17,587 bases of DNA from an uncultured bacterium. GTDB taxonomy: Bacteria > Patescibacteriota > Andersenbacteria > UBA10190 > CAIZMI01. The notes below the pieces were generated by a model. It was not told the origin of the DNA, made no database searches, and saw only the letters and a list, made by a program, of their open reading frames with translations. The position numbers were made by a program, and so were the translations under genes. The stretch is from contig CAIKKP010000057.1 in assembly GCA_903828055.1 (NCBI GenBank), positions 1 through 17,587 on the forward strand, given 5' to 3'. This document shows, piece after piece, positions 3,914-13,617 of this stretch (position 1 is the first letter of the stretch; the number at the start of each line of letters is the position of its first letter).

Positions 3914-5554
3914 TTATTGCGGATCTGGTTCACAAGCGGTATGCTTTTGACGCGATAAATAAGCCAAGGAGAGGTGGCCGAGTGGTCGAAGGCGCGGCTC
4001 TCGAAAAGCCGTAGGGGCGCAAGCTTCTCGTGGGTTCGAATCCCACCCTCTCCGCCAGTTTGTACTTTTCGTAAAATCGTAGTCGGTTGCCTTCGCGCGT
4101 TGCGCTTCGGCGTGATATTTCGACGCGATTCGCCACGCGGGTTGGGGGGAAAACGACAACGACCGCTCGGCGATGCGGAAGTTCGAACCAATCTTTTTGA
4201 GAAAATCCCGTCCCGCGACGGGATTTTCTTGTTGAGCGATATTTTCGGCTTGGTTAGCCTCTTTTATGAAGTTTATCATCAGTTCGAACCGATTTTTGCT
4301 CTTTGTTCCAAAAGCGGAGATTTTCTCTTCTAAATCTTTTTTAGCAAGCATAAGTTTTTGTTTTTTCGCAACATATTCCATTTGTGATAAATTTCCGTCC
4401 AGTTGTAAATCAAGCAAACGATCAAGTTTTGTTTCTAGATCCACGAGTTCATCTCTCGTCTTTTGGACATGAAAGCTTTCCGCTTGGACGCCCTCCATTT
4501 TCTCTTTTTCAAATTCCGCAATACTCGCTTTTGCCCAACCGTCTGACAAAGAAACTTTTTTGATCACCTCCTTTATTTGAGAAGTGATGGCGTCCTCTCT
4601 CGCATACCTTTGTGTGCAAGGATTTTTCCGTTTCGTACATCGCAAATAGTTATGTCCTTTTTGCGTTTCAGTGGTAATGAAGCAACCGCACTCCCCGCAA
4701 CGGAAAAATCCTCTGTACACATAAGGTTTGAGTTTTGGCGTTTTCGGTTTTGATTTATTCATCATCACTTCTTGAACGGAATCAAAAAGCTTCTTTGTGA
4801 TAATCGGTTCATGCTTTCCGTCATACAGTTCATCGTTATATTCAATCATTCCGTAATAGATTTTGTTCTTAAGCATATATTGATAATTTGAGACGGAAAG
4901 CATTTTACCTTTCTTGCCAACCAAGCCTAGGGAATTGATCATCTTTCGCACTTGAGCAAGAGGATATTCACCAGTGGCGTACATTTCAAACGCCCGCTTG
5001 ATATACTTTGCCTTTTCTTTGTCCACGGCGATACAGCGAGCATTTTTATCGTTCACATAGCCCAATGGCGCCCAAGCGGGCCAGATGCCATTGCGTAACT
5101 TCTGGCGAATACCTCTCTTGATATTTTCCGACAGATTATCCACATAGTACTTTGATTGCCCAAAAGCGATTGATAACATAAATTTTCCCTGTGGTGTCGG
5201 ATCAAACCAAAAAGTAGGAAATTTTAGCGTGGTTATTTTCCCAGTATCTACCAGATAGATTATCCGTCCGCCGTCTATGGAATTGCGAGCTAAGCGGTCA
5301 GGGTGCCACGCTAAAATTCCTTCTGCTTCATTTTTCTCTATGCAAGAGATCATTTCGTTGAAAATATCTCTGCCCGGCTCTTTGGCGGTTTTACTTTCCA
5401 CAAACTCACGGACGATATTCAATCCTTCTTTTTTCGCAAATTCCCGCAATTCAAACATTTGCGCTTCAATACTCAAAACCTGCCTTTCAGGTTCGTCCGT
5501 GGATTTGCGGGCATAGAGAAAAATCTTTTTGGTTTGTAAATTTATGTTGTCCAT
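3914..5554 (-). CDS. Large serine recombinase with resolvase/invertase catalytic domain, recombinase domain and zinc ribbon
   Basis: The N-terminus YARKST...S has the catalytic Ser context of serine recombinases, followed by an RLARN motif. A CxxC...C...C zinc ribbon lies around residues 286-313 (FRCGECGCFITTETQKGHNYLRCTKRKNPC), and a coiled-coil region follows. Residues 1-456 are unique sequence. Residues 457-546 are encoded by repeat X and the antisense strand of the tRNA, so this is a probable read-through tail. Confidence 0.85.
   Translation of the reverse strand: MDNINLQTKKIFLYARKSTDEPERQVLSIEAQMFELREFAKKEGLNIVREFVESKTAKEPGRDIFNEMISCIEKNEAEGILAWHPDRLARNSIDGGRIIYLVDTGKITTLKFPTFWFDPTPQGKFMLSIAFGQSKYYVDNLSENIKRGIRQKLRNGIWPAWAPLGYVNDKNARCIAVDKEKAKYIKRAFEMYATGEYPLAQVRKMINSLGLVGKKGKMLSVSNYQYMLKNKIYYGMIEYNDELYDGKHEPIITKKLFDSVQEVMMNKSKPKTPKLKPYVYRGFFRCGECGCFITTETQKGHNYLRCTKRKNPCTQRYAREDAITSQIKEVIKKVSLSDGWAKASIAEFEKEKMEGVQAESFHVQKTRDELVDLETKLDRLLDLQLDGNLSQMEYVAKKQKLMLAKKDLEEKISAFGTKSKNRFELMINFIKEANQAENIAQQENPVAGRDFLKKIGSNFRIAERSLSFSPQPAWRIASKYHAEAQRAKATDYDFTKSTNWRRGWDSNPREACAPTAFREPRLRPLGHLSLAYLSRQKHTACEPDPQ
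3968..4057 (+). tRNA. tRNA-Ser with anticodon CGA; class II with a long variable arm and encoded CCA
   Basis: Acceptor GGAGAGG pairs with CCTCTCC. The D arm is GCCGAGTGGTCGAAGGCG. The anticodon stem cggct/agccg carries loop CTCGAAA, giving anticodon CGA. A 19-nt variable arm is followed by T arm GTGGG-TTCGAAT-CCCAC, discriminator G and CCA. It closely resembles canonical bacterial tRNA-Ser. Confidence 0.9.
4052..4185 (+). repeat. Inverted repeat X, copy 1 (134 bp, about 58 % GC)
   Basis: Exact reverse complement of 5618-5751, checked base by base (134 of 134). It begins with CCGCCA, the last 6 nt of the tRNA-Ser. Confidence 0.95.
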
Positions 5555-5585
5555 TCTTTATTTTTGGTTAGCTAAAAGATTGGTT

Positions 5586-5602
5586 GTATCGCCGTGCGAT
5601 AC
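5586..5602. promoter_or_regulatory. 7-bp perfect palindrome in the recombinase upstream leader
   Basis: gtatcgc-cgt-gcgatac lies between the recombinase start codon (5554) and repeat X' (5618). It is a candidate operator. Confidence 0.3.
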
Positions 5603-5617
5603 CCACGCATTGCGCGG

Positions 5618-5751
5618 CGAACTTCCGCATCGCCGAGCGGTCGTTGTCGTTTTCCCCCCAACCCGCGTGGCGAATCGCGTCGAAATATCACGCCGAAGCG
5701 CAACGCGCGAAGGCAACCGACTACGATTTTACGAAAAGTACAAACTGGCGG
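5618..5751 (-). repeat. Inverted repeat X, copy 2
   Basis: Reverse complement of 4052-4185 at 100 % identity. Confidence 0.95.
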
Positions 5752-5900
5752 GCGTTTTTGGACGAAGTTCGAACGTCGTTCGACGCAAACGCGTGACGCC
5801 CCCCCAGCAACGAAACGCGACGACGCCGATTCGTAACGCGAAAAAGGCATGGGAATAAATGAGTACTGTGTATTCTATAACGCAATCTTTATTTTTGCGA
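5748..5900 (+). repeat. Inverted repeat Y, copy 1 (153 bp)
   Basis: Reverse-complement match to 7675-7830 at about 94 % identity. The differences are C7 versus C9 in a homopolymer, a 12-nt divergent patch and one further substitution. It overlaps X' by 4 nt (GCGG). Confidence 0.9.
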
Positions 5901-5916
5901 CACGCCCTCTAAAAAT

Positions 5917-7638
5917 TCAAATAAAATTATTTAATTTTTTAGAAACAAAAAATGGTCCTATTGCTAAATACTTTATGTTTTTTGAATCAATAAAAGCTTC
6001 AATTGCTTGCCCTGGGTCATTAACGATCGGCAAGCCTTTAATATTGAACGATGTATTAATAATCAGAGGAATATTAGTTATATTTTCATATTCTTTTATG
6101 AGATCATAGTAAATACCATTATCATCGTTGTTTACTGTCTGAACTCGTACACTCCCATCAACATGTTGTGCTGCAGGTACTTTGTTACTGTATTCAGACT
6201 GTATTGCATCAACCAACAACATGTATGGCGATTTGGTTCCGCGTACCAGCCAATCTTTTGTTTTTTCTTCAAGAATAGAAATTGCAAAAGGACGAAATGA
6301 TTCCCTGTGTTTAGTTATGTTTAATTTTTCAATCATACTTTTATCAACGGCCGATGCAAGAATACTGCGCGCACCAAGAGCTCGGGGACCAAATTCTAAT
6401 CGTCCCTGAAACCACATAACGATTTCGCCCTCACTCAAAAGTCTGGCAACTTTTGTGTGAATTAAATTTTCCTTTGAATATGAAAATAAGTTTCCATGTT
6501 TCTTTAATTCATTTTCAATTTCCTTATTTGAGTACTCGGGGCCTAAATATGCATGACTAAACCGAACAGGTTTCTTTTCCTTGTTGAATTCTTGATGCAG
6601 TAAGTATTCCGCACCAATTGCTACACCTGCGTCATGCGATGCGGGCTGGATAAAAACCTCCTTGAATGGGGTTTTTTCTAAAATAAATCCATTTGTTACG
6701 GAATTCAAACAGACGCCACCAGCCATCACGAGTTTGCTTTTTTTTGTCTTATTATAAATATCATTTAGTTTTTCCAAAACTATCTCTTGTGTGTACTCTT
6801 GCCAAGTTGCCGCGACATCGAAATGGGCTTGCTTATATTGGCCTGATATGGCTGAAGGTTCGCCAATTAATTTTTCAAATTTCTCTGTTGGTTCTCCTTT
6901 GCAATCAGCTATTTTAAAATAAGAGGTATCTACATTTAGCCAGTCATTATCTTTTTCTGGAAAGAATTTCACAATATTTTTAAATTCACTCAAATATTTT
7001 GGCTTTCCAAGTGCAGCGAATGCCATCGTCGTGCCAGCCTTTTGCCAACCAGGCTCGAAACCGCAATATTCGCCTACTGCTCCCCAAACACATCCAATAG
7101 AATTGGGGTGATACAAAAATCCTTTTTGTTGTATTCCTTTTTTGTAATCAATTTGTCCCCACAAACTTGAATCATATTCTCCCCGCGCATCTATAGTTAA
7201 AAATGCGGCATCATCAAACCCCGAAGCATAAAATGCCGATGCGACATGTGCTTGGTGATGAATGTAAAATTTTATTTTTACGTTTGAAGAAAGTTTTCCG
7301 ATTCTCTTTTCAAAAAGATTAGCAATTGTTCTTAGTTGCCATAACTTTTTTAAGCTCTTTTTAAAAACGTAAAATGGCGGATGATATTGGAACAAGTATT
7401 CTTTAATAATTCGATTAAAAAATAGTTCTTTGGTGTCCCAACCTACGGCAACGCCTTTTAAATCTTTACTTGTAATGCCAGCCTTTTTGAAACAATATTT
7501 AATGGCATTTTCTGGAAAACCGGAATAATGTTTTTTTTGAGTAAATCGTTCTTCTTCAACTGCAACAATAATATTTCCCTCATCATCGATGAGGCAAGCA
7601 CTACTATCGTGTGAATAAGCATTTAGGCCAAGATACAT
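5917..7638 (-). CDS. Carbamoyltransferase of the NodU/CmcH family
   Basis: 573 aa. The N-terminus MYLGLNAYSHDSSACLIDDEGNIIVAVEEERFTQKKHYSGFP is the hallmark of NodU/CmcH/TobZ-type carbamoyltransferases, and the length is typical for the family. Confidence 0.9.
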   Translation of the reverse strand: MYLGLNAYSHDSSACLIDDEGNIIVAVEEERFTQKKHYSGFPENAIKYCFKKAGITSKDLKGVAVGWDTKELFFNRIIKEYLFQYHPPFYVFKKSLKKLWQLRTIANLFEKRIGKLSSNVKIKFYIHHQAHVASAFYASGFDDAAFLTIDARGEYDSSLWGQIDYKKGIQQKGFLYHPNSIGCVWGAVGEYCGFEPGWQKAGTTMAFAALGKPKYLSEFKNIVKFFPEKDNDWLNVDTSYFKIADCKGEPTEKFEKLIGEPSAISGQYKQAHFDVAATWQEYTQEIVLEKLNDIYNKTKKSKLVMAGGVCLNSVTNGFILEKTPFKEVFIQPASHDAGVAIGAEYLLHQEFNKEKKPVRFSHAYLGPEYSNKEIENELKKHGNLFSYSKENLIHTKVARLLSEGEIVMWFQGRLEFGPRALGARSILASAVDKSMIEKLNITKHRESFRPFAISILEEKTKDWLVRGTKSPYMLLVDAIQSEYSNKVPAAQHVDGSVRVQTVNNDDNGIYYDLIKEYENITNIPLIINTSFNIKGLPIVNDPGQAIEAFIDSKNIKYLAIGPFFVSKKLNNFI

Positions 7639-7674
7639 GGATATTGCATTAATGATCTGATCTTATAATAGTTC

Positions 7675-7830
7675 TTCGCAAAAATAAAGATTGCGTTATA
7701 GAATACACAGTACTCATTTATTCCCATGCCTTTTTCGCGCTACGAATCGGCGTCGTCGCGTTTCGTTGCTGGGGGGGGGCGTCACGCGTTGTCAGCGAAA
7801 CACGTTCGAACTTCGTCCAAAAACGCCCGC
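7675..7830 (-). repeat. Inverted repeat Y, copy 2 (155 bp)
   Basis: Reverse complement of 5748-5900. It ends with CCGC at the outer junction. Confidence 0.9.
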
Positions 7831-7839
7831 AAAATAATG

Positions 7840-7867
7840 AAACGCCCTTGTGGCGTTTTGTTATTTT
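7840..7867. terminator. Terminator-like hairpin
   Basis: aaacgcc (7840-7846) pairs with ggcgttt (7852-7858) around loop cttgt, followed by tgttatttt. It lies at the outer edge of repeat Y'. Confidence 0.35.
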
Positions 7868-7977
7868 GCCTGAGCAACCAACTGCTTGGTTGCGAGTGGG
7901 ATTCGAACGGTTCGCGTTGTCCAGCAGGACCGCGAACCGGTGGCCAGAAATTTGCAAATCATTGCAAGTTTCGAGGC

Positions 7978-7992
7978 CGAATCCCACCCTCT
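7978..7992 (+). repeat. Partial duplicate of the tRNA-Ser 3' segment, a candidate attR core
   Basis: 15 of 15 identity to 4037-4051, with mismatches on both flanks. An inverted partner, gtgggattcgaa, lies at 7897-7908. Confidence 0.4.
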
Positions 7993-8087
7993 TTGCAGTA
8001 AGAATTCTTTTCCTTATCGTTGACAGTATCGAATTAGCGTGTAAAGTTTATCAACATTGGTAATTTATAAATAATTGCAATATTGAT

Positions 8088-8531: not shown

Positions 8532-8948
8532 ATATAAGCACTGTCAGGGTTACAAAATCTTTTAGGGTATACGCAATAATGGGTTGGAGTCTCGTCCTTG
8601 CGAGGCTTTTCAAGGCCGAAGCAATCTCCCGTTAAAAATTACTACTTCATAGCACTCATTCTTGAGATTGCCACGCTGTTCGACAACCCTGAGCTTCCCT
8701 CTCGATCCTGAGCTCGAGGTCGAAGAGCAGTCGAAGGGCCTTGTCCTCCGCCAGCCGGCGGAATCACGCATGATCAATGGCTCGCAAAGACGCGAATTGT
8801 TTCAATTTTGTTTCTGATATGGCTTATGTTTATCTATTAATCCAGATGATTTACGTATGATCTTCATGGGTTGTTTCTTTAAATAAGTCGCATATCGTTT
8901 AGAATATTGAAGCTTACCTACGCTTACGGTTTGTGCTATTATTTACTT

Positions 8949-10187
8949 ATGCCTACAGAAAAGAATTCCGGAGCAATAGACGCGGAAGTGATAAAAGAGC
9001 CATCTTTGAAGGAGATTCTTGACGATAAGGAACTTGGGCGTGGTTTTAAGACGTGGTTAGAAGGACAAAAAAGGGAGGATTTAATGGTTCGTATGTTGTC
9101 TGGGAAATTGGAAAGTGATGATCTGAAGACGTTGGCGTCAGAAACGGATAAGTTTTTAGAGCGAACGAGTCAAAGTGGCGAAATAAAGAAACAAATTTCA
9201 GAAACCGATGAAATTAGTACACTGGTTGAGGCATCAAACTCGGATGACTTAAAAGATTTGGTTAAACTTTTTGGTGTGGATGGTATTAAGGAGGCTTTTG
9301 GGGATGTGTTGGATAAAATCGCTTTGATGCCCGGTGATGAGCTTGCGAATGTTTACAAAGTTTTTAATGAGCGACGTGAAGCGGGGAAGTTGGTGGAACA
9401 ACAAAAAGCCGAATTTAACAGTATGTTGGAAAAGTTGAATTTGTCACAAGAAGAGGCAAAAGAAGTCGCAGGTATTCCGATATGGGAAGTAAGACAAAAA
9501 AAGGTGGCTGAGTTGTGGCGTAGTAAGGGGTTAGAAAAAACCGAGGAAAAAAGTATTTGGTTTATAAAATGGAATAAAAAGGTGTGGCCGCCGGAACAAG
9601 AGGAATTTATGAAAATGGATGCTGAGGATTTTTCCAAGGCGCTTAAAATTAATGAGTGGACAATAACTGAAAAACAAATTGAGAAGGCGGAAAAAGCGTT
9701 AAAGGAACGGCAGAAGTCTTTAGTGGAATCACTGAACGCTACCGCCTCTATCGATGGTATTGCAGAACTCAATCGTCATTTGATAGGGGAAAAGGAAAAA
9801 CCGGACAAAACAATGAGTTTCAAAGAAGTGAAACAGGAACTGAAAAAAGAAAAGGACAAGGAAAACATTTCTCGTGAATTTTTTGAGTATGCGGAACGCG
9901 GGTTCGCTGATTATATTGAAGAGGCTGGCTACCCGATGGGTACGAAAGATTTGCAGATGGCTGCCGCAAGTGATTTTTATCGAAAGTTTCAGGACAATCG
10001 CAAATTACAACAGAACAAACGTGGCGGATTATGGTCGTCTATCTATCAAACTGTTCTTGAGCCGTTAGTTCAAGAATTATTGACCGAACTACAGACAGAT
10101 GATCGCTTTAATGTGACAACAAGAGTTGAGAAGAAACGCGGCGTAGCTGACAAAAATTGGTATAATTTATCAAAGAAAACAAAATGA
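8949..10187 (+). CDS. Hypothetical K/E-rich soluble protein, first gene of a four-gene operon
   Basis: The ORF is open from TTG 8907. An ATG at 8949 lies directly downstream of TGcTATTAT (8934-8942), so a leaderless start is plausible. The protein is charged, largely helical, and has no recognisable domain or TM. Its stop overlaps the next start in ATGA. Confidence 0.5.
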   Translation: MPTEKNSGAIDAEVIKEPSLKEILDDKELGRGFKTWLEGQKREDLMVRMLSGKLESDDLKTLASETDKFLERTSQSGEIKKQISETDEISTLVEASNSDDLKDLVKLFGVDGIKEAFGDVLDKIALMPGDELANVYKVFNERREAGKLVEQQKAEFNSMLEKLNLSQEEAKEVAGIPIWEVRQKKVAELWRSKGLEKTEEKSIWFIKWNKKVWPPEQEEFMKMDAEDFSKALKINEWTITEKQIEKAEKALKERQKSLVESLNATASIDGIAELNRHLIGEKEKPDKTMSFKEVKQELKKEKDKENISREFFEYAERGFADYIEEAGYPMGTKDLQMAAASDFYRKFQDNRKLQQNKRGGLWSSIYQTVLEPLVQELLTELQTDDRFNVTTRVEKKRGVADKNWYNLSKKTK

Positions 10188-10474
10188 CCGAACTCGCCAT
10201 TCAACTTGAAAAGCTAATTGAAGTCGGTGATGAAAAAGCCGTGCGCGCTTTTGTTATTGAACACATTAAAGAGTTTCCGGAAGAAACAAGAAATCAAATC
10301 ATCTTTGCTTTTTTTACCGAAGCGATGGAAAACGACACCAAGGCCAAGCAAGCGCTCGCGGGAATAATTGGTCAAGGGTTGGATGAATTGAAACAAATTA
10401 ATAAAGACCTAGCCAATCTTGGCGATAAGAAAGCGATTTTGGACGTACAAAAGAAGATTCAGGGGATAAAGTAG
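10184..10474 (+). CDS. Hypothetical 96-aa protein
   Basis: The ATG overlaps the upstream TGA in ATGA. Coding-like composition, no recognisable domain. Confidence 0.5.
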   Translation: MTELAIQLEKLIEVGDEKAVRAFVIEHIKEFPEETRNQIIFAFFTEAMENDTKAKQALAGIIGQGLDELKQINKDLANLGDKKAILDVQKKIQGIK

Positions 10475-10687
10475 GACGCGCACTACGTCAGACATAACCC
10501 CTCTTGCGCTGGCACCCTCTCGAACATCCACCGGATGTTCTCGGGGCATCCGCCGCGCCACTTTGATAAGGGGAGATAACTTGGTGTCGTATTTCTTCCA
10601 TTTTTCAGGGGAAGGCGGGGATGAGTTTGGTTGTTGCTTTTGATATGTTTGTTTATTCGTTAGAAAAGCGTCATAATTGACGTAGCT

Positions 10688-11152
10688 ATGCCAACTGAAA
10701 CAAGAAAAGAAAACCCCGAAGGCAGTTTAGTTTTTGAAAATTCGGAAAAAGCGAAGCAGTTTGCCGAGCGCGTGAAAGAAAACTTAGAACAAAAGAATGA
10801 GTCTGAACCTGGCATGGAAAGGCGTAACGAACTTACTGAAAAACGCATTAAAGACGCAATTCGTGAAGAATTGGAGAACGAAACAAACGGTGCCGGTTTG
10901 GCTACTGTTGCGGAAGGCAAGGGTGAATGGCAGTATTCCGCCGAGGATCGCGCGGGTGTACAACAATATGTAAACGTGGCTTTCGCTACCTCCGTTCAAA
11001 AAGCGGTGGAAGAAATGATGCGAGAAAAAATTGTCGCGGGCAGTAAAGCCGACGAAGCGTCCACTTATCGTAAACTTGATTTATTTCATGACACGCTCAC
11101 CGATCATCTCTACCAAGATATGACGGCCAGAAAAATGATTCCACCGGGATGA
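10688..11152 (+). CDS. Hypothetical 154-aa acidic protein
   Basis: Preceded by TTGTTT, a 17-nt spacer and CATAAT (about 10648-10676). Its stop overlaps the next ATG in ATGA. No TM and no recognisable domain. Confidence 0.5.
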   Translation: MPTETRKENPEGSLVFENSEKAKQFAERVKENLEQKNESEPGMERRNELTEKRIKDAIREELENETNGAGLATVAEGKGEWQYSAEDRAGVQQYVNVAFATSVQKAVEEMMREKIVAGSKADEASTYRKLDLFHDTLTDHLYQDMTARKMIPPG

Positions 11153-13617
11153 TTCAGTTACTTGTTCTTTTCTTGTTGTTGATTATTGTAGGGATTATCA
11201 CCTATTTGGTTTTGAAGTATTTGCAGGAAGAAAGATTACTCTCTTCTTTACATTTGATTTTGCTGGAAGTGACGGTGCCGAAAGACTTACCGCAACAAGA
11301 AAAAGACCGTGAGGGAACGGTGCAGGAACAAATTATGCGCGGTTCGCAGTTTTTAGCCAGTTTGGCGGGTTTGCGTGAAGAAAATTTCATTAAGAATCTG
11401 ATTTTTGGTAAACCGACATGGGGTTTCGAAATTGTCGCGCATCCGAATGGTGAGATTATTTTCTTTGTTTCGGTACCACGTCGTTATGAAGAATTTATGG
11501 AAAAACAAATTCTTGCTTTTTATCCGCGTGCCGATGTGAAGCGCGTGGCGGATTATACGATTTTTGAAGAAGGTGACACGGTTGAGGGGGGAGTTGTAAA
11601 ACAACATCATAAAAAATATTTACCGTTGAAGACTTTTGAGGATTTGCCGTCCGACCCGATGCAGGGGATTACACAGGCGTTATCTAAAATGGAAAAAGGC
11701 GACGGTGGCGCGGTGCAATTTATTGTGCGACCGGCATCCGCGCGGATTCGTGTGAAGGGACGGCGTGTTACGCGTCAGGTGGCGTTGGGAAAAGAAAAAT
11801 CGGTGCGACACGGGACTTCTTCTTTTGGCGAGGCGGCTCGCGGTTTGGGGCGCACAGCTAACAATTCCTTATTGAAAAATAAAGAGCAAAATACGCGACA
11901 AGACGATCGGGAAGATAAGTGGCAAGCACAAATGTCGCCTGCGGAACAAGAACGACTAGAACGCGTAGATAAAAAAACCGGTGAATATCAGTTTGAAGTG
12001 ACAATGCGCTTAATCGTTTCCTGCAAAACAAAAGAAACAGCCGAATCACATTTTATGGTACTCAAAGAATCACTGACGCAATTTGGCGACCCTTCTTTAA
12101 ACGAGTTGAGTACGCATCGTCAAACGAAACGTAGTTTTTTCCGTGATTATATATTCCGCACGTTTAAAAAATCGCAATGCATGGTGTTGTCGTTGACGGA
12201 GCTTTTGTCACTTTTCCATTTCCCGTTATCTACCACTGAAACACCCAATATTCGTTGGCGCACGTCAAGAAGTGTCGCGGCACCGGCCAATTTGCCCCAA
12301 AACGGTATTTTATTAGGTTACAACGATTACCGAGGGATTAAGACTCCTATTCGGCTTCAAAGAGAGGACAGGCGTCGTCATATGTATATGATCGGTCAAA
12401 CTGGAACCGGTAAAACAACGCTCTTCAAAAATATGATTATGCAGGATATTCGCAACGGAGAAGGAGTCGGGGTGGTTGATCCGCACGGACAATTGATTGA
12501 AGATATTCTTTTGCAGATTCCTAGAGAGCGGGCCGAAGATGTGATTATTTTTGATCCGCGCGATACCGATCGGCCGTTGGGGTTGAATATGTTGGAGGCG
12601 CGCAATCCGGCGCAACGCGATCTTGTTGTTTCCGAACTAATTATGATTATCGAAAAACTGGCCACACGGATGAATCCGGAATCGATCGGTCCGATGTTTG
12701 AACATTATTTGAGGAACGCGCTTTTGACACTGGTGGAAGACCCAGACTCAACAATGATCGATATCTCTCGTCTTTTTACCGACAAGGCCTTTCGTGATTG
12801 GCTGGTGGCAAAAGTGAAAAACCCGATAGTGCGGGAGTTTTGGGAGAAAGAGTATGCTCAATCTCTGAAGGGGCAACAGTCGGCCGATATGTTGTCGTAT
12901 GTTATCAGTAAGCTTGGGCGTTTTATTGGTAATGAGGTAATTCGCAATATCATCGGTCAGCCAAAAAGTTCGTTTGATCTGCGTGAAATAATGGATAATA
13001 AAAAAATCTTACTCGTTAATTTGTCGAAGGGTTCGTTGGGTGATATTAATGCCGATTTGCTTGGGTTTATCTTAGTCAGTAAGTTGCAAATTACGGCGCT
13101 TTCCAGAACGGATATTCCGGAAAATCAACGTAAGGATTTTTATCTTTATCTCGATGAGTTTCAAAATTTCACCACCGATACTGTCGGGACAATTTTAAGC
13201 GAGGCGCGTAAATATCGCTTGGACTTGAATTTGACGCATCAGTTTATCGCGCAACTTTCGGATGAAATCAGAGAAGCTGTTTTTGGTAACGTTGGTACGG
13301 TAATTTCTTATCGTGTCGGTGTGGAAGATTCGGAGCTGATGGCAAAACAACTCGCCCCTGTTTTTGACGAGTATGATTTGATTAATGTTCCAAATTATAA
13401 TTGTTTCACGCGCTTACTTGCCAAAAATCAACCGCAACGTCCATTTTCCATGAAAGCGTCACCGCCACCACCGGGGGGCGACGAAGAACTTCGTCAGAAT
13501 TTGTATGAATTGTCACGTCTTAAATATGGTCGACCAAAACAGGAAGTGGAAGAGAGAATATTGGAACGGCTGAAAGTAGCGACTGCTCCCAGCCTGTCCG
13601 GTATGGGTTCGCGCTAA
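11149..13617 (+). CDS. TrwB/TraD/VirD4-like type IV coupling protein family P-loop ATPase, membrane-anchored
   Basis: 822 aa with an N-terminal TM (LVLFLLLIIVGIITYLVL). Walker A MIGQTGTGKTTL is followed by VVDPHGQLIEDIL...IIFDPRDTDRPLGLNMLE, matching the TrwB pattern GATGTGKS...IVDPNGD...ILNP.D.R. Walker B is YLYLDEFQNF. The C-terminal LTHQFIAQL...GNVGTVISYRVG matches the Q..QL...GN motif of coupling proteins. Confidence 0.6.
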   Translation: MIQLLVLFLLLIIVGIITYLVLKYLQEERLLSSLHLILLEVTVPKDLPQQEKDREGTVQEQIMRGSQFLASLAGLREENFIKNLIFGKPTWGFEIVAHPNGEIIFFVSVPRRYEEFMEKQILAFYPRADVKRVADYTIFEEGDTVEGGVVKQHHKKYLPLKTFEDLPSDPMQGITQALSKMEKGDGGAVQFIVRPASARIRVKGRRVTRQVALGKEKSVRHGTSSFGEAARGLGRTANNSLLKNKEQNTRQDDREDKWQAQMSPAEQERLERVDKKTGEYQFEVTMRLIVSCKTKETAESHFMVLKESLTQFGDPSLNELSTHRQTKRSFFRDYIFRTFKKSQCMVLSLTELLSLFHFPLSTTETPNIRWRTSRSVAAPANLPQNGILLGYNDYRGIKTPIRLQREDRRRHMYMIGQTGTGKTTLFKNMIMQDIRNGEGVGVVDPHGQLIEDILLQIPRERAEDVIIFDPRDTDRPLGLNMLEARNPAQRDLVVSELIMIIEKLATRMNPESIGPMFEHYLRNALLTLVEDPDSTMIDISRLFTDKAFRDWLVAKVKNPIVREFWEKEYAQSLKGQQSADMLSYVISKLGRFIGNEVIRNIIGQPKSSFDLREIMDNKKILLVNLSKGSLGDINADLLGFILVSKLQITALSRTDIPENQRKDFYLYLDEFQNFTTDTVGTILSEARKYRLDLNLTHQFIAQLSDEIREAVFGNVGTVISYRVGVEDSELMAKQLAPVFDEYDLINVPNYNCFTRLLAKNQPQRPFSMKASPPPPGGDEELRQNLYELSRLKYGRPKQEVEERILERLKVATAPSLSGMGSR

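Follow-up and report, generated by a model that had tools for sequence, protein, structure and literature searches.

We analyzed a 17,587-nt stretch of DNA from an uncultured bacterium of the Andersenbacteria (Patescibacteriota; contig CAIKKP010000057.1 of assembly GCA_903828055.1), hereafter called the window, and found that about 3.8 kb of it, approximately positions 4052 to 7830, is probably a mobile unit, which was inserted by a large serine recombinase (LSR) into the 3′ end of a tRNA-Ser(CGA) gene and which carries a ~290-bp inverted duplicate of its own attachment site, attP. The structural interpretation is well supported. The anatomy of the locus was directly observed and is listed below, where P and P′ denote the two halves of attP, B and B′ those of the host site, and IR-A and IR-B the first and the second inverted repeat (IR) pair.

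3914 to 5554, minus strand (read from 5554 to 3914): LSR open reading frame (ORF), 546 amino acids; after codon 501 it runs through antisense tRNA, with no conserved stop
3968 to 4057, plus strand: tRNA-Ser(CGA), whose T-arm and acceptor 3′ strand form the putative host half-site (B′) of attR (ARAGORN, Rfam, spacing counts)
4035 to 4040, plus strand: TTCGAA of the T-loop, 11 nt before the core
4052 to 4055, plus strand: core 1, CCGC, tRNA nucleotides 71-74, common to the predicted attR, internal attP and attL; the crossover dinucleotide would lie inside it
4052 to 4185, minus strand: IR-A arm 1, attachment-site P arm, identical with recombinase codons 457-501 (SNFRIAERSL...KSTNWR)
~4199 to 4230, plus strand: hairpin with a 14-bp stem, located at codons ENPVAGRDF of the recombinase gene and resembling a terminator when read in tRNA sense
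5586 to 5617, minus strand: pair of small hairpins that interrupts the TTCG/AA motif where arm 2 ends on its inner side
5618 to 5751, plus strand: IR-A arm 2, putative P arm of the intact internal attP; its plus strand encodes the same tail, running on as ...NWRAFLDEVRTSFDANA to a stop codon
5748 to 5751, minus strand: core 2 (GCGG on the plus strand), inverted, at the centre of the putative internal attP
5748 to 5900, plus strand: IR-B near arm, putative P′ arm of the internal attP; conserved motif with TTCGAA at 5768-5773, 16 nt from the core
5917 to 7638, minus strand: cargo, a NodU-like carbamoyltransferase gene (domain and family searches)
7676 to 7830, minus strand: IR-B far arm, putative P′ arm of attL; TTCGAA at 7805-7810
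7827 to 7830, plus strand: core 3, CCGC, repeating core 1 in the same orientation and closing the element on the right
7837 to 7865, plus strand: hairpin and T-run directly after attL, probably the displaced native tRNA terminator (B side), as in loci L010 and L018

Inverted repeats and the tRNA gene

The original prediction, made from the letters of the window, had described an exact 134-bp inverted repeat around the recombinase gene, beginning within the 3′ end of the tRNA gene and supplying its terminal nucleotides. Both statements were confirmed. Positions 4052-4185 and 5618-5751 are perfect reverse complements (134/134) separated by a spacer of 1432 nt; they are the only two copies of the arm in the 17.6-kb window, and their GC content of 0.565-0.585 compares with about 0.37-0.45 in the surroundings. 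The tRNA-Ser(CGA) gene at 3968-4057 is intact (ARAGORN; Rfam tRNA, 59.5 bits) and was the only feature to reach threshold in an Rfam scan of the window. Arm 1 opens with CCGCCA, which is C71 C72 G73 C74 C75 A76, the last 6 nt of this tRNA.

Furthermore, a second inverted pair, overlooked in that prediction, directly adjoins the first and flanks the carbamoyltransferase gene. It is made up of 102 nt at 99% identity (5799-5900 and 7676-7777) and 58 nt at 90% identity (5748-5805 and 7773-7830), and both pairs together constitute one ~290-bp inverted duplicate of the attP region. The perfect identity of the first pair stops at TTCG/AA (4185/4186) because the upstream copy has the two small hairpins inserted there. 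Beyond these hairpins there is a short degenerate continuation of the inverted copy (AACCAATCTTTT), and in many loci the codons ...ENIAQQ(ENPxxxRDF)LKKIGSN can still be recognised at this place as a degenerate inverted copy. In relatives, the small hairpins inserted at TTCG/AA often hold a GCGAAGC motif.

The recombinase and its coding sequence

On its domain matches, the protein appears to be a large serine recombinase, very distant from any characterised one. It carries a Resolvase domain (PF00239, E = 1.2e-20, residues 12-157), a Recombinase domain (PF07508, E = 5e-16) and a Zn_ribbon_recom domain (PF13408, E = 2e-7), and R16, S18, T19 and D20 of the N-terminal catalytic domain are invariant across 24 homologues. 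It also matches the structure of the C-terminal domain of the A118 integrase (E = 6e-7, 118 residues aligned); between the zinc ribbon match and a conserved NRFE motif there are residues ~335-425, where a directionality-controlling coiled-coil insertion would be expected, and the NCBIfam CcrB and XisF scores were far under their cut-offs. Small invertases have ~190 residues and a C-terminal helix-turn-helix and lie beside the segment that they invert, whereas this protein has about 500 residues and LSR domains and is encoded inside the repeats.

The LSR ORF has no stop before arm 1 and reads across it into antisense tRNA. Homologues down to 58% identity keep the tail ...KKIGSNFRIAERTLS..KNAW..KYHAEA......NWR, and after NWR most of them continue with R.RDSNPR, which is the antisense translation of the tRNA T-arm. 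The conservation of this tail and its antisense-tRNA continuation thus indicate that arm 1 is coding sequence and that the whole family is convergent with the tRNA gene. As had been supposed earlier, the repeat belongs to the recombinase; a common dispersed miniature inverted-repeat transposable element, which had been named as the finding that would undo this, is discounted because arm 1 is the recombinase's own last 45 codons. The stem of the hairpin at ~4199-4230, inside the coding region, covaries between loci (z = -3.6), and on the tRNA-sense strand it looks like a terminator replacing the displaced tRNA terminator.

Junctions and boundaries of the element

We compared the junctions of the window and of 16 double-repeat relatives in the tRNA-sense direction. 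Junction (a) reads tRNA...CT/CCGC/CA-arm, junction (b) motif...ACA/CCGC/CA-arm and junction (c) motif...ACA/CCGC/native flank. The tetranucleotide CCGC (tRNA nucleotides 71-74) is the sole segment common to the three, and therefore the crossover would have taken place within it. Judged from this comparison, junctions (a), (b) and (c) are most readily read as attR, an intact attP and attL, such that arm 1 and 7676-7830 would be a copy of attP split by integration, and arm 2 with 5748-5900 a copy still intact. The native flank at junction (c) is often a terminator hairpin (window 7837-7865, L010 and L018) or the next tRNA gene (L040); it may be noted that the scan flags the window hairpin on the minus strand and that its plus-strand reading was made by eye. 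As in a tRNA-gene integrative element, the core is repeated directly at the two ends, one of which adjoins an intact tRNA. The insertion-sequence-like cassette bounded by the 134-bp repeats, as first imagined, was not borne out: the core-bounded unit covers about 4052-7830 including the cargo, and arm 2 is internal to it as part of the inverted attP.

The distance from TTCGAA to the core was found to be 16 nt in the P′ arm (36 loci) versus 11 nt in the tRNA T-loop (38 loci). In the A118 integrase system, the motif bound by the zinc ribbon domain lies 5 bp further inward in attB than in attP (PMC3783163), and the spacings observed here are consistent with this serine-integrase geometry, that is, with a 5-bp shift between attP and attB.

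The TTCGAA at the inner edge of arm 1 was also considered as a general crossover site and was rejected, as the upstream copy continues past the two inserted hairpins, the perfect repeat of other subfamilies ends 13-50 nt from the motif, and the chimeric recombinase of L227 breaks in mid-gene. Given the L227 breakpoint, hybrids such as L008 (see below) appear to have arisen by homologous exchange within conserved stretches. On the far side of attL and the old terminator, tRNA-like fragments were noticed at 7880-7997 of the window, with an antisense T-arm-like GAGTGGGATTCGAAC at ~7898-7912, a sense GGCCGAATCCCACCCTCTTTGCAGT at ~7973-7997 and hairpins between them; these fragments gave no Rfam match and may be the scar of an older integration.

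Conservation of the architecture across the family

We examined 80 related loci from a collection with one genome per species. Their phylum names are the depositors' bin labels taken from record titles, some of which are doubtful; the labels include Patescibacteria, Elusimicrobia, Verrucomicrobia, Omnitrophota and Ignavibacteriota, among others. An inverted pair surrounds the LSR gene in 60 of the 80 loci, one arm lying just upstream of the gene and the other overlapping the gene's 3′ end (arm median, 121 nt), and in 33 of these 60 the arms are at least 99% identical. A convergent tRNA begins at the outer end of the downstream arm in 48 of the 60 loci; 40 are tRNA-Ser and the rest tRNA-Gln, -Glu, -Asn and -Asp. 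Without exception, and like the tRNA of the window, these 48 arm-adjacent tRNAs are in convergent orientation to the recombinase gene. At their outer ends both arms track the host tRNA over 5-7 nt (CCGCCA, CAGCCA, GGAGCCA, GGCGCCA), and a conserved ~45-nt motif, GGATTTTGCTCAAAAAATGTTCGAACTTCGTCCAAAAAACA/CCGCCA, stands directly outside the upstream arm in essentially every locus and recurs inverted at the far end of the cargo. A second adjacent pair of 139-434 nt, around a cargo of 1.3-4.7 kb, was seen in 16 loci. This conservation across the family was observed directly, and no description of the layout was found in the literature searched. A phage origin was considered as well and was rejected, as IMG/VR gave one true relative only.

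Apparent exchange of the recombinase C-terminus at the core

Two proteins of a relative, P0098 and P0090, represent one recombinase, differing at 2 positions before residue 498, and they diverge directly after NWR, that is, at the core: one enters CFLIDVRTFFEQNPQ (P′ arm) and the other antisense tRNA-Ser(GCT). The occurrence of apparent attP-type and attR-type ends on the same recombinase supports mobility indirectly. In a rough sequence-pattern count over the best 120 homologue clusters, about 67-71 end in antisense tRNA, while 19-21 end in NWR-C(F/L)L..(V/I)R(T/M)(F/Y)F(E/D)(E/Q)NP, in short NWRCFLDEVRTFF(E/D)(E/Q)NP, with a stop of their own. This terminal peptide is kept despite changes in the underlying DNA (L010, L011, L037, L040 and L053), which suggests that it is translated; the peptide-ending form would be the native end of the protein, made from the circular form of the element. 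Translated forward, arm 2 of the window yields ...NWRAFLDEVRTSFDANA; the far arm yields AFLDEVRTCFADNA, and a stop follows in both cases.

Homogenization, orientation and inversion

The arms of the window are 100% identical to each other, and the nearest foreign arm is 71% identical to them versus 82% for the recombinase body; between loci, arm divergence is no slower than that of the recombinase body. Concerted evolution of the arms is thus directly seen. Since the layout is common to the whole family, the duplication is old, and since an old duplication has near-identical arms, these must have been kept alike by gene conversion. The earlier suggestion of a recent duplication or homogenization therefore held for ongoing homogenization (100% within the locus against 71% to the nearest one) and failed for recency.

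Both integration topologies were directly observed among the relatives. Two chromosomal contigs show the topology opposite to that of the window, the order being dnaX, tRNA-Gln(+), arm, LSR(+), tail, core, P′ arm and cargo in L234, and tRNA-Ser(+), arm, LSR(+), tail, core, P′ arm and a helix-turn-helix gene in L227. This is the expected outcome either of integration through the second attP or of a flip of the recombinase segment. L059 has convergent tRNA-Ser genes (GCT and GGA, at 53-142 and 1955-2044) on both sides of a recombinase gene whose arms measure 175 nt, an arrangement that a reaction of the internal attP with a second tRNA gene would produce.

Inversion of the cargo was likewise seen directly in relatives. 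The ~9-kb restriction/helicase cargo of the P0088 element lies one way in L228 and L232 and the other way in L229, L230, L231 and L233, and the type III restriction cargo of the P0057 element was found both ways at 100% identity (L235 versus L236); contigs L237-L239 stop exactly at the inner edge of the repeat. Cargo inversion in these two elements looks active or polymorphic, and it may be homologous or recombinase-driven, as the sequences fit both.

Proposed mechanism

We propose that the LSR would insert the element into the 3′ end of tRNA-Ser(CGA) by crossing over inside CCGC. Arm 1, the P arm, which encodes the last 45 residues of the recombinase, would be joined to the tRNA to make attR; arm 2 and the P′ arm at 5748-5900 would make up a complete inverted attP just upstream of the recombinase gene (predicted attP, about 5725-5780); and the far P′ copy (7676-7830), joined to the old tRNA terminator, would make attL. 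The predicted attB is reconstructed as CCCACCCTCTCCGCAAAATAATGAAACG, and the empty site would read tRNA...CTCTCCGC-AAAATAATG. In the excised circle, a recombinase segment and a cargo segment would be set apart by two attP regions in inverted orientation, and either copy of attP may be usable for integration. The long repeats would permit flipping and gene conversion, which would keep the arms identical, and they would keep the recombinase reading frame complete whichever arm adjoins it. The native protein would be that of the circle, ending ...NWR-(C/A)FLDEVRT..., and integration via attP1 would swap this end for antisense-tRNA codons. As for the purpose of the duplicated attP, the candidates are integration via either copy, flipping with an intact frame, reaction with further tRNA genes and regulation of the recombinase.

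A more far-reaching reading, to which we give little credence at present, is that of a distinct class of serine-recombinase element built on two inverted attP sites. Such elements would enter tRNA genes by either site; the attP left in the chromosome would react with other tRNA genes, possibly driving inversions or natural cassette exchange as in L059; the cargo would flip in a phase-variable manner; and rewriting of the C-terminus from the conserved CFLDEVRTFF..NP peptide to antisense-tRNA codons would act as a built-in directionality switch replacing a separate factor.

Alternative explanations

The original prediction had also offered a self-inverting module. In its full form this would be a switch in which the recombinase flips 4186-5617 or 4052-5751 at useful frequency and so changes its own promoter context or C-terminus. 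Relatives do carry the recombinase segment in both orientations relative to the tRNA (L234 and L227 against the others) and the cargo both ways in two cases, where its inversion appears to be active, and the duplicated coding tail would keep the gene intact either way. Moreover, in one sample of the window population (ERZ27313539) contig L004 breaks off 7 nt after arm 2, whose outer base is the starting point of contig L008; the overlap of the two contigs is exactly k = 141, which therefore marks a branch of the assembly graph beside the arm, and such a break is compatible with a minor variant. However, the window species shows one orientation in every assembly, and no flipped protein variant was present in the cluster of the window recombinase in a collection of 15 billion sequences. 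L008 has an identical recombinase body followed by a different tail arm, a P′-type motif and a helix-turn-helix gene, and is best read as a hybrid with another element and no simple flip. L234 holds the opposite topology with arms only 86.5% identical, so that the state can be stable. Lastly, the flanking sites here would be attR and attP, and serine integrases normally recombine attP with attB only (PMC3783163). We consider a switch of this kind in the window element unlikely; self-inversion thus finds a counterpart among the relatives, while the window element was found in one orientation only.

Less likely again is that the locus consists of two independent cassettes with identical inverted ends, each forming a palindromic joint when circular, namely a 1.7-kb recombinase-only cassette (4052-5751) and a cargo cassette (5748-7830) inserted successively at the tRNA end. 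The presence of CCGCCA/TGGCGG at all three junctions agrees with this, as do the recombinase-less derivatives with collapsed arms (L120, L169 and L173), the recombinase on the cargo side away from the tRNA in L228 and the recombinase between two tRNA genes in L059. But none of about 100 loci has a recombinase cassette alone between a tRNA and the native flank, and the P′ motif always stands beside arm 2. Symmetric ends would predict equal orientations, whereas all 48 tRNAs are convergent and the C-termini of homologues are split roughly 3.5:1; P0098 and P0090, for their part, behave as an ordinary attP versus attR.

An assembly artefact, either chimeric or a collapsed repeat, has a negligible chance of being the explanation. 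The first reading had listed a chimera among its candidates, and the perfect identity of the arms and the contigs that end inside or at the arms might point that way, but at least six samples yielded this sequence independently, with different assemblers and k values and in contigs reaching across both arms among others, the neighbouring repeat is not perfect, and the architecture is kept at the 60 of 80 loci from other genomes.

Several observations weigh against the proposed mechanism. We infer the position of the crossover from sequence comparison only, and the dinucleotide would lie somewhere within CCGC. Neither an empty tRNA site nor a circle junction nor a flipped form of the window element was found in the contigs and collections searched: an exact look-up of the flanking proteins (a response regulator and a DUF4349 protein) gave no contig lacking the element, and an exact 32-mer from the arm had no match in JGI metagenomes, so that no alternative contexts of the window element were sampled there. 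Some variants in the population carry an insertion of unknown sequence in the recombinase gene at 5334-5373, leading to a 421-residue product, P0016 (L225 and L217/L005, sample ERZ27313532; also ERZ1426756), and in the 58 nt next to the core the two P′ arms of the window disagree at 10% of positions; the window copy may be fixed and slowly decaying. Among the relatives, L059 is no simple product of the model, the cargo of L228 ends on its far side in a decayed attR, and L145 joins two different P′ halves head to head exactly at TTCGAA, which the model leaves unexplained. Nor does the model offer an explanation for the recombinase-internal GGATTTTCTCAAAAAGATTGGTTCGAACTTCC (4178-4210, codons RDFLKKIGSNF), which closely resembles the conserved P′ motif GGATTTTGCTCAAAAAATGTTCGAACTTCGTCC. 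The selective reason for a duplicated attP is also one that we infer.

Cargo, derivatives and neighbouring genes

The cargo varies from locus to locus and is often related to defence, comprising GmrSD, type II and type III restriction-modification systems and AAA_15 ATPases; metabolic cargo was also seen, namely the carbamoyltransferase of the window and, elsewhere, an FAD oxidase and an enolase, the latter read from the sequence by eye. In metagenomes there are recombinase-less derivatives, L120, L169 and L173, in which the arms have collapsed onto each other into short palindromes; the metagenome contig L107 was grouped with them. Outside the element, the window contains at 8907-13617 a run of genes without family matches, followed by that of an 822-residue protein with a TrwB/VirD4-like coupling-protein domain (PF10412; DUF8128 in precomputed matches), and this run may serve in DNA transfer or uptake. 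Positions 17558-18724 of contig L003, ~1.1 kb beyond the start of the window on the pyruvate kinase side, contain the gene of an rve-family (DDE) integrase.

Comparison with known systems

With the serine integrases of phages and elements (A118/LI, Bxb1 and phiC31 type) the present system shares the three domains, putative hybrid attL and attR sites with a short common core and a putative recognition motif placed 5 bp closer to the predicted crossover in the host half-site; it differs in its distant sequence, in its target, the tRNA 3′ end, in an ORF that crosses attP so that the C-terminus would change on integration, and in the inverted ~290-bp attP copy flanking the gene. Tycheposons and tRNA-integrated islands with tyrosine integrases likewise restore the tRNA 3′ end and have direct core repeats, variable cargo and an integrase beside the tRNA, but here the recombinase is a serine enzyme, the core is only about 4 bp and there is an internal inverted attP. 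The archaeal integrases of SSV1 type also have an attachment site that overlaps the integrase ORF and a tRNA target; that enzyme, however, is a tyrosine recombinase whose gene is split by integration, whereas in our family only the C-terminal extension after NWR is exchanged. Tn4451 and Tn5397 (TnpX, TndX) and SCCmec (CcrAB) are, similarly, small cargo-bearing elements moved by large serine recombinases via a circle, but their terminal repeats are short and imperfect, they do not target tRNA genes and they lack an internal copy of attP.

The predicted circle, with its two long inverted repeats that evolve in concert and carry the recombinase site, and with its two unique, flippable segments, resembles the yeast 2-micron plasmid (FLP/FRT) and the inverted repeats of plastids. 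FLP, in contrast, is a tyrosine recombinase acting on identical sites, while here the repeats hold copies of an integrase attP and the element has no replication genes. Inverted sites flanking segments, and cargo in both orientations, are also known from the Hin/Gin/Pin invertases and from engineered inverted-attP landing pads (MiMIC, cassette exchange), where engineers use two inverted attP sites for exchange; but the invertases are small, lie outside the segment and use 26-bp sites and an enhancer, and the landing pads are synthetic. A natural dual-attP element was not described in the literature searched. By this comparison, the yeast 2-micron plasmid and the engineered landing pads appear to be the nearest analogues of the layout, and its departures from known tRNA islands are the ORF across attP, the long inverted attP duplicate round the recombinase gene and the invertible cargo.

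Significance

Taken as a whole, the family represents a widespread architecture of serine-integrase elements for which we found no description in the literature searched. As attB (the tRNA T-arm and acceptor) and attP can be read from sequence, the family is a source of many candidate integrases for genome engineering that would target tRNA genes at predicted sites. It also hints at how small elements with no obvious directionality factor might control integration, and it points to invertible tRNA-linked cassettes with defence genes in uncultivable organisms. Furthermore, it explains one frequent cause of contig breaks beside tRNA-Ser genes in metagenome-assembled genomes.

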